DNA of 64,000 nt from Promethearchaeota archaeon. GTDB taxonomy: Archaea; Asgardarchaeota; Lokiarchaeia; Sigyniarchaeales; SOKP01. The notes beneath the pieces are model-generated. The model searched no databases and was not told the origin of the DNA. It saw only the letters and a program-made list of their open reading frames with translations. Shown piece after piece: positions 8,976 to 17,459 of the stretch; within the stretch, counting starts at the first letter, position 1, and each line of letters starts with the position of its first letter. Made by a program: the position numbers and the translations under genes. The stretch is taken from assembly GCA_048940925.1 (NCBI GenBank), contig JBHLOC010000001.1, positions 160,001 through 224,000 of the forward strand, given 5' to 3'.

Positions 8976-9283
8976 TTTTGATAGCCTCCTTAACTTTAAA
9001 TTTTCAACTAATTCTTTTATTTATATTATTTTTTAGTTTTTTTGATATACTTAATTATCTTGTAGTAATAAATACTGAAATAAATATTTTGTTTAAATAA
9101 ATTAAAAAAATAAAAAAAATCAAGTATAAGATATCATTTTGCTAAGAATCTTCTCAAAATTGAGATTTTATTGATGTTTTCCACCGAGTTTTCAAATGAT
9201 GTGTTAATAAGAGTCATCAAATTTTGAATAGAATAAATATTTAAATTTAAAAAAATAGATATCAAAAAATAAAAAATACCTTA

Positions 9284-9303
9284 TAATGTCCCGAGAGACA
9301 TTA
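9284..9303 (-). terminator. Conserved 8-bp stem / 4-nt loop hairpin downstream of micro-ORF copy 1
   Basis: Minus strand TAATGTCT-CTCG-GGACATTA (one G-U pair), followed by T-rich tracts; near-identical copy at 13111-13130. Confidence 0.6.
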
Positions 9304-9309
9304 AATACT

Positions 9310-9342
9310 TTATGGCTTTGGACCAGTATCTCCCTTCCACAT
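9310..9342 (-). CDS. Putative 10-aa micro-peptide MWKGDTGPKP (copy 1)
   Basis: ATG TGG AAG GGA GAT ACT GGT CCA AAG CCA TAA; the paralog at 13137-13169 keeps frame, length and G-D-x-G-P-x-P with synonymous changes. Confidence 0.65.
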   Translation of the reverse strand: MWKGDTGPKP

Positions 9343-9443
9343 ATTATTATTTTTTTATTTATGTATTTATATAACACCAAAAATTAGTTGAATTTTTATA
9401 GAATAACATATTGTTTAACAAAATAAGATAAAAATCAATCAAA

Positions 9444-10250
9444 TTGTCTATTCTCTCTCATTACCTATTCCGATTATTTTGGGTGCTTTCGAGATATAAG
9501 TCCTATTTTGAGAACTTATTTAGAGTGCTTCCATTCTTCACTTCACGACCTACTTACCGTTCAATGAAAATGTTTGCAGATGCAATAGAAGATTATTATT
9601 CATATAACTTAAAAAGTTCATTTGTATTTTATAAACATTGTTTACAGAAGAAATATAATGGAATAAAAATAATATATGATTTAGGAATTTATTTTAGAAG
9701 CTGGGATAAACTCGATCGATTAGAGAAAAAAATCATCAATTTATCATATGGAAATATTCTGGATATAGGATCATGCACGGGGTATTATATTCCCTATTTG
9801 ATGAATAAAGGACCAACAACAGGAATAGAACTCTCATCTAAAATTAACAATATAGCGCGAAAAAAAGGTCTTGATAATTGTATTTCAGGTGATTTTTTAA
9901 AATATAAGTTCAATAAGACATTCGACACAATTACTCTCTTTGGAAACGATATTGCGCTTTCAGGTTCCTTATTTAACTTAAAAAAAATATTGAAGAAATT
10001 CAAAAAGTTACTTAACCATGACGGTCAAGTATTATTAATCATAAGCCATATTCGAACATTAAAATATTGGCATGTTATATTTACCCCTAAGTATGAGGGT
10101 CATTTTGGAATTCCTTTTAAATTACTTTTCTTTAATACCCACTTTTTTAATAAATTTGCTGCTAAATACGGTTTTTATTCCAGCATTCTTGGAAAAAGTG
10201 AAATGCTCGGAGACCTTTCATATTTAGTTAGATTAGTTAAATTATCATAA
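9444..10250 (+). CDS. Class I SAM-dependent methyltransferase
   Basis: ILDIGSCTG motif I, FDTITLFGN; true start may lie downstream. Confidence 0.8.
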   Translation: MSILSHYLFRLFWVLSRYKSYFENLFRVLPFFTSRPTYRSMKMFADAIEDYYSYNLKSSFVFYKHCLQKKYNGIKIIYDLGIYFRSWDKLDRLEKKIINLSYGNILDIGSCTGYYIPYLMNKGPTTGIELSSKINNIARKKGLDNCISGDFLKYKFNKTFDTITLFGNDIALSGSLFNLKKILKKFKKLLNHDGQVLLIISHIRTLKYWHVIFTPKYEGHFGIPFKLLFFNTHFFNKFAAKYGFYSSILGKSEMLGDLSYLVRLVKLS

Positions 10251-11695: not shown

Positions 11696-11797
11696 CGGGC
11701 TATGAGGGATTTGAACCCCCGACCTGCCGGTATCCGCTACGAATTTTGTAATAGTCGCTTAAGAGCCGGTTGCGCTACCTGCCTGCGCCAATAGCCC
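11696..11797 (-). tRNA. tRNA-Lys(CTT) with 28-nt intron at 37/38 (11732-11759)
   Basis: Acceptor GGGCTAT/ATAGCCC, D arm GCGC, anticodon loop CT-CTT-A then intron, T arm GGGGG-TTCAAAT-CCCTC. Confidence 0.88.
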
Positions 11798-11835: not shown

Positions 11836-11945
11836 CGCAGACGGAGGGACTCGAACCCCCGAGCGCTTATGCGCACCGGCTCTCAATGTTATGATCTTCA
11901 TTATAGCACTCAAGGCCGGCGTCTTACCAACTAGGCTACGTCTGC
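11836..11945 (-). tRNA. tRNA-Ser(TGA) with 27-nt anticodon-loop intron (nominally 11882-11908)
   Basis: Acceptor GCAGACG/CGTCTGC, CCGGC/GCCGG anticodon stem, long variable arm, G discriminator. Confidence 0.88.
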
Positions 11946-12133: not shown

Positions 12134-12216
12134 GCAATCGTCGCTTAGCCTGGTAGAGCGCCGGTCTGCTAAACCGGTGTCCAACGGATTCGTGGGTTCA
12201 AATCCCACCGATTGCG
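12134..12216 (+). tRNA. tRNA-Ser(GCT), intronless
   Basis: GCAATCG/CGATTGC acceptor, CCGGT-CTGCTAA-ACCGG, variable arm, TTCAAAT. Confidence 0.93.
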
Positions 12217-12993: not shown

Positions 12994-13110
12994 AATAGGT
13001 TCTCTAATTGAAAAATATTTTTTACTTTTATTCTGTTGATGTTTGAGTAATTTCTTATTGAATTATTAATGTTTATTCCAGTTTATTTTAAAAAAAATAA
13101 AATAGGATGC

Positions 13111-13130
13111 TAATGTCTCAAGAGACATTA
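13111..13130 (-). terminator. Conserved 8-bp stem / 4-nt loop hairpin downstream of micro-ORF copy 2
   Basis: Minus strand TAATGTCT-CTTG-AGACATTA, followed by a T-rich tract. Confidence 0.6.
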
Positions 13131-13136
13131 TATGAC

Positions 13137-13169
13137 TTATGGTATAGGTCCTCTATCTCCACGAAACAT
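13137..13169 (-). CDS. Putative 10-aa micro-peptide MFRGDRGPIP (copy 2)
   Basis: ATG TTT CGT GGA GAT AGA GGA CCT ATA CCA TAA; paralog of 9310-9342. Confidence 0.65.
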   Translation of the reverse strand: MFRGDRGPIP

Positions 13170-13309
13170 AATATATTTTTTTTTCTAATATATTTGTTTA
13201 GCACTAAAAAATTTGATTGAATTTTTAAGCAATTTTATATTGATACACTAAAGAAGATAAAAATAGATAATGTTGTGGTTTATTCTCAAACCACATATTC
13301 CTTATAAAA

Positions 13310-14302
13310 TTAGTTTAAATATTGAAATACAATTTCGAAATCTGAAAAGTCAAATGGTTTTAAGATAAACCCATCTGCTTTAATTTCGACCATTTTCTTT
13401 TCAACTTCGGAACTAGGAATAGCAGTCAATAAATACACAGGTATGGATTTATATGATTTATGATCTTTTATCAATTTGCAGATCTCATAACCAGAAATAT
13501 CTGGAAGAATGATATCCAGTAAGATTAATTTTGGTAATCCACCACGTAATTCTTCTATTCCTTTTGTGCCACTAACTACACCTTTACACTTATAACCTTT
13601 ACTCTCGAAATAGCTTGTAAGCAATTTAATGGTCGCAAGGTCATCTTCAATGAGGAGAATATCGTATTGAGATTCAGTTTCTTCCACTTTAATGTTGTCC
13701 AAAATATTGATAATTTTACTTTCAAGAAGTAAACTTTGGTCAAAGATGTTTTTTATTGTGGATAGTACTTCCTCATCTAAGTCGTCCTTATAATTTTCTA
13801 AAAGAAGTTGGCTAAAGCCTTTAATAGTTGTTAGTGGTTCTTTTAGCGCATGAGAAATAGTTGAGATGGTTTTTTCATCAATTCTACTTAAACCTCCTCC
13901 CAATATATTAGATTTTTGTTCTATGTAATAATCAACACTGTCTCTAATCAATGCAGAGATTGTAGAATAATCATGGGTTTCTTTAAATTTTTGCCATTCA
14001 GATTTGGTTTCGTCTGATACATAGAGAGATATACGCTCTTTATCTCGGTCATAAATTTTTTCACCCTTTAACCATTTTTTAAATCCTTCAGTAATGGTAC
14101 CACGCCATATAGCATATTTGTCAGTCTGTTCCTCGTATTCTTTCATTAAGTTTTTTGCTTTTTTACTTTCCAAATCTAAATTAGCTATTTCCTCATCTGT
14201 CATACTCGGTCTATCATCATTATTTTCTATAACTTTTTCAGTTTTATTCTTGTCTTTTTTCTCTTCGTCCGGAATTTCTTCTACATCTCTCTTTTGCTTT
14301 AT
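13310..14302 (-). CDS. Response regulator: RHH-like + HisKA + receiver domain (start either ATA 14302 or ATG 14203)
   Basis: RISLYVS..ISALIRDSV (RHH-like), SHALKEPLTTIKG (H-box), ILLIEDD..LLDIILP..KPF (REC); the frame stays open with charged codons up to ATA 14302. Confidence 0.8.
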   Translation of the reverse strand: MKQKRDVEEIPDEEKKDKNKTEKVIENNDDRPSMTDEEIANLDLESKKAKNLMKEYEEQTDKYAIWRGTITEGFKKWLKGEKIYDRDKERISLYVSDETKSEWQKFKETHDYSTISALIRDSVDYYIEQKSNILGGGLSRIDEKTISTISHALKEPLTTIKGFSQLLLENYKDDLDEEVLSTIKNIFDQSLLLESKIINILDNIKVEETESQYDILLIEDDLATIKLLTSYFESKGYKCKGVVSGTKGIEELRGGLPKLILLDIILPDISGYEICKLIKDHKSYKSIPVYLLTAIPSSEVEKKMVEIKADGFILKPFDFSDFEIVFQYLN

Positions 14303-14568: not shown

Positions 14569-15495
14569 TTAATTCTTCTCACTTTTTAAAATATCAAAAA
14601 TAACTTCAAAATCAGAAAAATTAAAAGGTTTTAGAATATACCCATTAGCTTTTGTTTCTTCAAGGTTTTTTTCAACTTCAGAACCTGCTATAGCAGTTAA
14701 GAAGTACACAGGAATATTCGACCATTCTTTATCTGATTTTATAGTTTTACAAATATCATAACCACTTAAATCAGGCAAAATTATATCTAATAATATTAAT
14801 TTAGGAATAGCATGGCCTAATTCTTCTAAACCTTTAGATCCGCTAACAATACCCTTACATTTATAGCCTTTACTGTCAAAGTAACTCGTGATTAAGCGAA
14901 TTGTTGCTAGATCATCCTCAACCAATAACACATCATATTCAGACTCTACCTTAATATTATCTAGGATATTGATTATTTTTGTCTCAAGAAGAACACTTTG
15001 TTCGAAAATATTTTTTACGGTGTCTAATATGTGATCATTCAATTTTTCTTTGTAATTTTCAAGAAGTAATTGTGAATATCCTTTTATTGAAGTTAATGGT
15101 TCTTTTAAAGTATGAGAAATATTAGAAATCGTCTGTTTATTTAATTCCTTCAGAGTGTAATTATTTTCCATTGATTTACTTTGGATGAAGGCTTCCACTG
15201 ATTGCCTTATTAATTTAGAAATCGTCAAAGAACCATTATTTTTAGTAAAATTTAGCCATTTAGTTTTAGTATCTTCAGAAACATATAAAGAGATTCGTTC
15301 TTTGTCTCGATGGTATATTTTCTCTCCTTTTTGCCATTTTTTATAACCTTCTGTCACTACGCCTCGCCATACTGAATATCTTCCGGTTTCTTTTTCATAT
15401 TTTTTCATTTCTTCAGATTTTTCAATGGAACTATTATCAATTTTGATTAGTTCTTTATCATCTGAGTCTTCTTCGCTATCCTTTGATTTTTCCAC
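14569..15495 (-). CDS. Response regulator paralog: RHH-like + HisKA + receiver domain
   Basis: Same architecture and strong similarity to the adjacent gene; start uncertain (GTG). Confidence 0.8.
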   Translation of the reverse strand: MEKSKDSEEDSDDKELIKIDNSSIEKSEEMKKYEKETGRYSVWRGVVTEGYKKWQKGEKIYHRDKERISLYVSEDTKTKWLNFTKNNGSLTISKLIRQSVEAFIQSKSMENNYTLKELNKQTISNISHTLKEPLTSIKGYSQLLLENYKEKLNDHILDTVKNIFEQSVLLETKIINILDNIKVESEYDVLLVEDDLATIRLITSYFDSKGYKCKGIVSGSKGLEELGHAIPKLILLDIILPDLSGYDICKTIKSDKEWSNIPVYFLTAIAGSEVEKNLEETKANGYILKPFNFSDFEVIFDILKSEKN

Positions 15496-17053: not shown

Positions 17054-17459
17054 AAACAAGGTAAAAGGTGGGGGAGACAAATCTCTTAAATTCTATTTCG
17101 AATTATTAATTAAACCCATTAAAAATCTAGAATTCGATAAAAATTCAATTTTTTTGTGGATTATAAATATATACATTCAAAATATTTAATATGTTGCGTG
17201 GAGAACCACCTATACCTTAAATTATGGAATGTTTCTAAAGATATTACAGATTATTTTATTTTTTTGATTAAACTAAACCTTTTTTTTAAATTAATAGATT
17301 TTTATCTAATTGAAAAAATTATTCTTGGTTTCTGCAATAAATGAAAAATTTCCTATTTAAAACTTACTTTTGAAGCAAAATTATGATTTTTTTTGTTTAC
17401 TGTCTTTAAGATAATGCCTTTTATTTATTGAGAATAAGAAAATTTATAATAGGCAATTT

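Follow-up and report, generated by a model that had tools for sequence, protein, structure and literature searches.

We found that the two 10-codon frames, MWKGDTGPKP and MFRGDRGPIP, are members of an unannotated family of 8-14-codon genes, with seven copies in this genome of a Promethearchaeota archaeon (class Lokiarchaeia) and about 50 in its genus and in related metagenome contigs. The frames look translated, and a part of the units lies beside genes for predicted peptide-tailoring enzymes. Hence, these Asgard archaea may make very short modified peptides, much as bacteria make microcin C, although this function is inferred from sequence signatures and gene linkage alone. The window analyzed here is a stretch of 64,000 nucleotides (GCA_048940925.1, contig JBHLOC010000001.1, positions 160,001 to 224,000), and the features are listed in the table below.

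Structure and distribution of the micro-gene units

First, we examined the two frames in the window. Both were observed on the minus strand exactly as the original prediction had described them, 3827 bp apart, and the observation is therefore confirmed. Neither frame was overlapped by any ORF of 60 aa or more. Both shared an upstream element (AAAAATTCAA, a few bases, T5-6, and then GTG), a TATA-like box about 29 nt before the ATG, and the hairpin AATGTCTC/GAGACATT followed by T-tracts. The ORFs were 45% and 39% G+C in flanks of about 20-25% (genome, 29.6%). The six-frame pattern M.[KR]GD.GP.P-stop occurred only at these two places in the 4.8-Mb genome, and the reversed-pattern control gave 0 matches. 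No Rfam family matched any copy even at a permissive threshold.

Subsequently, looser six-frame patterns were used, and a third copy was found in the window (MLRGEPPIP). Four more copies were observed elsewhere in the genome. Three of these (c4-c6) were tandem units 36 kb beyond the window, on contig C40 at 259974, 260346, and 260543, encoding MFRGDGGGVP, MFHGDGDLSP, and MLHGSSFEGIP, and the fourth was a TTG-started FRGGTGLP on contig C31. The tandem copies had different hairpin sequences but the same layout. c1, c2, and c3 (the three copies in the window) were 69-71% identical copies of 170-185 bp, and c2 and c3 are considered to be dispersed duplicates of the whole unit.

Features of the micro-gene units, neighboring genes, and other loci (positions are those of the window unless a contig or locus is named; L numbers are the loci read outside the window).
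Feature	Position	Strand	Description
Micro-gene c1	9310..9342	-	ATG 9342 to TAA 9310; 10 codons plus TAA, MWKGDTGPKP; 116 bits with covariance model R1
TATA-like box of c1	9365..9374	-	5' edge 31 nt before the ATG, which predicts a leaderless transcript
Upstream element of c1	9375..9399	-	A5TT / A2T5 inverted repeat ending in GGTG, between c1 and the divergent methyltransferase gene; shared by c1, c2, c3, and the copy of G018 (the closest relative); function inferred (operator or BRE-proximal element)
3' hairpin of c1	9276..9308	-	Core 9284-9303; starts 1 nt after the stop; dG -7.3
T-tract of c1	9263..9277	-	Presumed archaeal terminator; termination is inferred
Methyltransferase gene	9444..10250	+	Class I SAM methyltransferase, divergent partner of c1; true start probably near 9564, as the 228-aa form is the one on record
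Micro-gene c2	13137..13169	-	ATG 13169 to TAA 13137; 10 codons plus TAA, MFRGDRGPIP; 130 bits; orphan copy with no tailoring gene beside it
TATA-like box and upstream element of c2	13188..13227	-	Shared element at 13202-13227
3' hairpin and T-tract of c2	13090..13130	-	Hairpin 13111-13130
Micro-gene c3	17191..17220	+	9 codons plus TAA, MLRGEPPIP; 101 bits; absent from the original prediction
Upstream element and TATA box of c3	17137..17169	+	
3' hairpin and T-tract of c3	17225..17266	+	Weaker hairpin, dG -2.7
Region upstream of the proteasome alpha-subunit gene	8976-9110		About 135 nt, about 80% identical across the genus, as conserved as the coding sequence; could be a structured 5' UTR or a conserved promoter or operator
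tRNA gene	11696-11797	-	Between c1 and c2; 102 nt, which suggests an intron
tRNA gene	11836-11945	-	Between c1 and c2; 110 nt, which suggests an intron
tRNA gene	12134-12216	+	Between c1 and c2
HisKA-receiver paralogues	13310-14203 and 14569-15495	-	Tandem, 62% identical; HisKA and receiver domains but no recognisable ATPase domain
~1220-residue protein gene	Contig C40:256221-259901 (L008:6221-9901)	-	Lrp/AsnC-like by predicted structure
~1220-residue protein gene	L074:5126-8785	+	Same family
Micro-genes without the usual stop	L101:2108-2199 and L101:3488-3635	-	JGI metagenome contig Ga0073583_1147800, closely related to the Lokiarchaeum GC14_75 record JYIM01000199
B12-binding radical SAM gene	L101/L102:470-2059	-	Next to a micro-gene (MRGNNGLNP) in Lokiarchaeum GC14_75
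B12-binding radical SAM gene	L135:5089-6576	-	Next to a distant homologue of the ~1220-residue protein on another contig
Split MccB-like gene of genome G020	G020:C2:58704-59812 (L112/L113)		Two frames (a frameshift or an assembly error)

We next searched the relatives. A strict codon pattern found no copy in 40 relatives, but this was a false negative of the pattern, because looser patterns and covariance models found the copies. The orthologous spot in the closest relative, G018, showed MFRGGPIVP with the same promoter and hairpin. A covariance model built from seven units and a second one built from 27 found about 45 distinct units in 24 of the 54 genus genomes and in Lokiarchaeal metagenome contigs, including Lokiarchaeum GC14_75 (20 genomes with the first model, 22 with the second, 24 counting both). 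When the second model was run over 135 genomes of the family, almost nothing was found outside the genus. Of five genomes from other families of the order, four gave no hit and one, G058, gave a false positive. Other weak model hits were also treated as false positives because they lacked a frame or lay inside genes (G009, G013, G022, G051, G046:C88, and G118), and the candidate in G136 (MFKGEAEPAII) was rejected because it had neither promoter nor hairpin. Weak copies were observed beside other genes of a ~1220-residue protein family described below. The peptide types included RGGP.VP, RGD.GP.P, MRG..DG..P, a type beginning with MPG and carrying EG.P near its end (some copies extended to PIM), and MPYSGEIGG.

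The units shared a common anatomy. The 5' edge of the TATA box lay 24-31 nt (median 29) before the ATG in 45 units. The archaeal TATA box is centred near -26/-27, and transcription would accordingly start at or next to the AUG to give leaderless mRNAs; a few distant copies carried a Shine-Dalgarno-like GGAGG instead. The hairpin started a median of 3 nt after the stop, with a median dG of -7.3 kcal/mol, and was followed by a T-tract. All nine stem pairs showed compensatory changes, and 88% of cells were paired, against 71% in shuffles and 37-48% when the partners were slid, although the alignment was fitted to the model, which favors the structure somewhat. A bacterial-style terminator scan did not call the hairpins, because the T-run starts a few bases after the stem. 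The 3' motif CAT[CT]CTATTT was not specific to the family in this genome, and neither was a generic scan for a tiny ORF plus TATA, hairpin, and T-run, which gave 22 hits against 17 in reversed sequence.

Coding signature of the frames

Coding is strongly supported by a test that needs no alignment. Over 45 distinct frames and 388 internal codons, G+C content was 0.72, 0.64, and 0.16 at codon positions 1, 2, and 3, respectively (chi-square 290, p about 1e-63). Third positions were as AT-rich as those in host genes (0.22), and the choice of Gly, Pro, Glu, Asp, and Val codons also followed host usage. Thus, the G+C-rich island is a run of Gly, Pro, and Arg codons read in the ATG frame. Within aligned subgroups of equal length, variable sites numbered 14, 15, and 28 by codon position (p = 0.01), and Arg was written as CGT, CGA, CGC, and AGA. 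Furthermore, two copies on either side of one gene in the genome G054 differed by four synonymous third-position changes in nine codons. The first in-frame stop fell at codon 8-13 in 44 of 45 units, against 10 of 45 and 2 of 45 in the other two frames. Units were accepted partly because they had a frame; however, all but one model hit with E below 0.01 had one, the exception being G041:C67 (E 0.003), which was not extracted or read. RNAalifold found no consensus structure over the ORF and only the 3' hairpin. Two members on the metagenome contig L101 had lost the usual stop codon and read on, by 3 codons in one case and to 24 residues in the other, and may be decaying copies or longer variants.

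Genes neighboring the units

Clustering of the flanking ORFs showed three recurrent partners. The first was a class I SAM methyltransferase family, to which the gene divergent from c1 belongs. It occurred sporadically, as 12 genes in 6 of 54 genus genomes; eleven had a unit directly beside them (within about 250 nt) and the twelfth had one about 1.3 kb away. The units lay divergent from the gene or upstream on the same strand, and this held for two paralogous lineages that were 34-42% identical. Homologues were found only in Lokiarchaeal data, where the same pairing was observed, including a contig with tandem methyltransferase genes each having its own unit, whereas no unit was found upstream of the homologue P0050. 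The structure model (pLDDT 93) grouped with amine N-methyltransferases in a Foldseek search (5bp9, XhnM1, CalS10, NmbA, GSMT, CypM, CgnL, DesVI, and TylM1, at E 3e-16 to 1e-10) and not with rRNA or protein-arginine methyltransferases. Comparison with G018 showed that the methyltransferase-unit module moved and that the unit was duplicated in this genome.

The second partner was a sporadic ThiF-family adenylating enzyme, which occurred in 5 of 54 genomes and had a unit beside it in four; the fifth locus was cut by a contig end. It matched Pfam ThiF at 1.5e-46, and its best solved relatives were MccB (1.3e-16) and PaaA (1e-14), ahead of Uba1 (E1), ThiF, and MoeB. MccB and PaaA are E1-like enzymes that modify short ribosomal peptides (PMC4010828). 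An N-terminal extension of about 115 residues, the right size for the peptide-clamp domain of MccB (PMC4010828), preceded the ThiF domain. The MccB-like gene nearest to c1, c2, and c3 lay on another contig (C31:3348-4454). Around the split MccB-like gene of G020, three copies of the MPYSGEIGG micro-gene, identical in the nucleotides of the frame, lay within 3.6 kb.

The third partner, flanked by most other units, was a ~1220-residue protein. It occurred in 48 of 54 genomes, often in 2-5 copies, and its family formed 279 clusters in a library of 1.84 billion proteins. At least 22 units lay divergent from its 5' end or within about 100 nt of its 3' end, including both sides of one gene in G054 and in the genome G098 and both paralogues in this genome. 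The protein had no Pfam hit, no sequence hit in the Protein Data Bank, and no Foldseek hit at E < 1e-3. Only VIA-align and the ESM Atlas gave a relation: the AlphaFold model (pLDDT 86) matched the Lrp/AsnC-derived NirDL (Z 12.8, 294 of 305 residues aligned), AsnC/Lrp regulators (Z 6-6.6), and archaeal HTH_AsnC proteins (TM 0.64-0.75). The protein thus looks like about four Lrp/AsnC-type HTH+RAM modules, with a small zincin-like N-terminal domain lacking HExxH. A Ras-like small GTPase gene lies next to it. The contexts of four distant homologues showed no micro-gene.

In addition, an MFS transporter gene converged on the unit in seven loci, and the B12-binding radical SAM gene listed in the table may be a further tailoring enzyme. 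The remaining neighbors in the window (proteasome alpha, JAB, TFB, HisKA-REC, tRNAs, and ribosomal protein L2) are core genes and were regarded as incidental.

Interpretation and comparison with known systems

The interpretation given in the original prediction, an unannotated micro-peptide gene family under protein-level selection in which each copy is a self-contained transcription unit, is supported, and it is much strengthened by about 45 further members, by the period-3 G+C pattern in phase with the ATG, and by the covarying 3' hairpin. Of the three functions it had listed, the modified-peptide precursor is now favored, because the methyltransferase and the MccB/PaaA-like enzyme are consistently adjacent to units in their loci; a signaling peptide and a ribosome-stalling peptide remain possible but are less likely. 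Its remark on a KGD/RGD and collagen-like pattern is not supported as a defining feature, since many members read RGG, or begin with MPG and carry EG.P further on, and have no D at that place.

We presume that the family represents minimal precursor genes of a RiPP-like peptide system, a reading that we hold with no more than even confidence. In this view, an archaeal TATA promoter would start transcription at or within a few bases of the AUG, ribosomes would translate 8-14 codons into a Gly/Pro-rich peptide usually ending in Pro, and the hairpin and U-tract would end and probably stabilize a transcript of about 65-90 nt. The peptide would be the substrate of enzymes encoded beside it: an amine-N-methyltransferase-like SAM enzyme, which is the partner of c1, and, in other loci, also an MccB/PaaA-like ATP-dependent adenylating enzyme. 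N-methylation and, in some loci, carboxyl activation are the inferred steps. A separate strong promoter and terminator would give much more precursor than enzyme, and the giant Lrp/AsnC-like protein would be a likely sensor or regulator of the system. The analysis itself demonstrates the anatomy of the unit, the family, its coding signature, the hairpin covariation, and the gene linkage, whereas transcription, translation, the chemistry, action of the methyltransferase on the adjacent peptide, and the role of the large protein are inferred without RNA, ribosome-profiling, or peptide data for any copy. Several points weigh against the reading. c2 and c3 have no tailoring gene next to them, the linkage counts are not phylogenetically independent and reduce to a few ancestral loci plus duplications, and the methyltransferase fold group acts mostly on small molecules, so that the peptide need not be its substrate. 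In addition, the peptide sequences diverge fast, which is unusual for the substrate of one enzyme, and the family was detected only in one genus and its closest relatives. Two further ideas were dropped: that MFRGG mimics the ubiquitin LRGG tail to be cut by the neighboring JAB protease, because JAB is a core gene and many members have no GG, and that RGG undergoes PRMT-like methylation, because of the fold group of the methyltransferase.

Among the alternatives, an unmodified signaling or regulatory peptide acting as a ligand of the giant Lrp/AsnC-like protein or another partner, with the tailoring enzymes incidental or optional, is possible but unlikely. The positions of the units around the gene of this protein, its predicted ligand-binding RAM-type modules, the convergent MFS gene, and the lack of both the methyltransferase and the MccB-like enzyme in most carrier genomes favor this reading. 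However, the peptides have no secretion signal and no linked import system, RAM domains bind amino acids and are not known to bind peptides, c1, c2, and c3 are not next to the large protein, its distant homologues show no unit, and the strict adjacency of methyltransferase genes to units is left unexplained. Less likely still is a translation sensor, in which the peptide has no function of its own, translation of a tiny frame rich in Gly, Pro, and Asp that ends in Pro-stop stalls the ribosome in a manner sensitive to aIF5A, polyamines, or release-factor state, and the stalled ribosome masks the hairpin and tunes termination, read-through, or RNA stability. Indeed, 32 of 48 units end in Pro-stop, GP, PP, GG, and DG motifs are common, and a ribosome on the stop codon would cover the 5' arm of the hairpin; moreover, in several loci the unit lies upstream of a gene on the same strand (c4-c6 and the copies G018b, G098b, and G103c before the methyltransferase, and c1 and the copy of the genome G041 before the proteasome alpha gene). 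In contrast, many units (c2, the G018 copy G018a, and the copies 3' of the large protein) are divergent from or converge on their neighbors and have nothing to regulate in cis, no alternative antiterminator pairing was found, 16 of 48 units do not end in Pro, and the methyltransferase is not of the rRNA (Erm) type by fold. Residues such as R-G at positions 2-4, or E-G before the last Pro, are kept through synonymous change, which points to selection on the peptide itself.

A non-coding small RNA of about 70 nt, acting by base pairing or as a sponge with an incidental frame, is very unlikely. The layout of an unstructured 5' part plus a 3' hairpin and U-tract is that of trans-acting sRNAs, GGAGR or GAAGG occurs in nearly every member as part of a G-rich, Shine-Dalgarno-like 5' part, and the hairpin and its 3' flank are the best-conserved nucleotides. 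However, the period-3 G+C pattern is exactly in phase with the ATG, stop positions are tightly clustered only in frame 0, and the ORF nucleotides diverge freely while the residues are kept. A dispersed repeat or promoter-terminator relic with frames open by chance would fit the mutual identity of c1-c3, the non-specific generic scan, and the two copies without the usual stop, but is already disfavored, since the family is kept across at least 24 species with compensatory stem changes, a codon-phase signature, and non-random neighbors.

Genes this short are invisible to annotation pipelines, and here a whole family can be recognized from sequence alone. If the peptides are made, they would be among the smallest gene products known in archaea and the first mccA-like minimal precursors outside bacteria, which would point to ribosomal natural products or peptide signals in the closest prokaryotic relatives of eukaryotes. 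Full-text searches found no description of these micro-genes or of MccB-like systems in archaea, and the papers on archaeal RiPPs and bacteriocins that could be read do not mention such a system. The family also offers a natural test case for leaderless initiation and for termination on frames shorter than the ribosomal exit tunnel, and attaches a testable ligand or substrate to two Lokiarchaeia-specific protein families of unknown function, the methyltransferase and the ~1220-residue protein. A bolder and doubtful reading is that Lokiarchaeia run a peptide-based system without a described counterpart in archaea, in which leaderless genes among the shortest functional genes known yield peptides that are tailored by both enzymes and are sensed, or whose genes are controlled, by a giant four-module Lrp/AsnC-type protein. 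In effect, this would be an Asgard analogue of bacterial peptide signals or Trojan-horse antibiotics.

The closest working analogy is mccA/MccB of microcin C from E. coli and other bacteria (PMC4010828, PMC4231749, PMC6495379). The mccA gene has seven codons and is followed by a terminator that yields an abundant, stable, ribosome-bound transcript (PMC4231749), next to mccB and SAM-dependent and MFS genes. In the present family, the frames are likewise only a few codons long and directly followed by a hairpin, the precursor would be made separately from, and presumably in excess over, the enzymes, an MccB-like gene lies beside some copies, SAM-dependent and MFS genes lie in the neighborhood, and several enzyme-linked peptides start with MRG, which recalls MRTGNAN. 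However, the organisms are archaea, the mRNA is predicted to be leaderless, there is no formyl-Met, most copies including c1-c3 are not next to the MccB-like gene, and no immunity genes of the MccE or MccF type were seen. Furthermore, every proven MccB substrate has a C-terminal Asn, which is adenylated (PMC4010828), whereas the C-terminal residue here was Pro in 32 of 48 units, Gly in 5, Met in 4, and Asn in 1; the Asn-succinimide/phosphoramidate chemistry is thus excluded.

In pantocin A, PaaA acts on internal residues of a short ribosomal peptide, PaaP, so that a terminal Asn is not obligatory in this enzyme family; PaaP has 30 residues with an EEN core, and no such core is conserved here. 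The RiPP N-methyltransferases CypM (cypemycin, a linaridin) and CgnL (crocagin), within the TylM1/DesVI fold group, are matched by the methyltransferase model (Foldseek E about 1e-11, TM 0.5-0.6) and, as here, are encoded beside a ribosomal peptide gene, but the best structural matches are an uncharacterised Bacteroides enzyme (5bp9) and XhnM1, and sequence identity is 12-22%. The known RiPP cases use longer precursors with leader peptides and several further enzymes, and a RiPP precursor in the usual sense has a leader or follower peptide plus a core, recognised by an RRE or by the enzyme, whereas a product of 8-14 residues leaves no room for a leader or follower peptide, and only the MccA-like minimal type fits. 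RRNPP pairs (rgg/shp, plcR/papR, and aimR/aimP) resemble the present loci in that a very small peptide gene lies divergent from, or just 3' of, the gene of a large cytoplasmic ligand-binding or DNA-binding protein; however, the partner here is Lrp/AsnC-like and not a TPR protein, and the peptides have no export signal and are already of mature size. Finally, regulatory leader peptides (ermCL, tnaC, and the MAGDIS uORF) share a length of 6-24 codons, Pro-stop endings, and a hairpin close to the stop, whereas many copies in this family have no downstream gene on the same strand, only one helix is conserved, and the residues are under selection.
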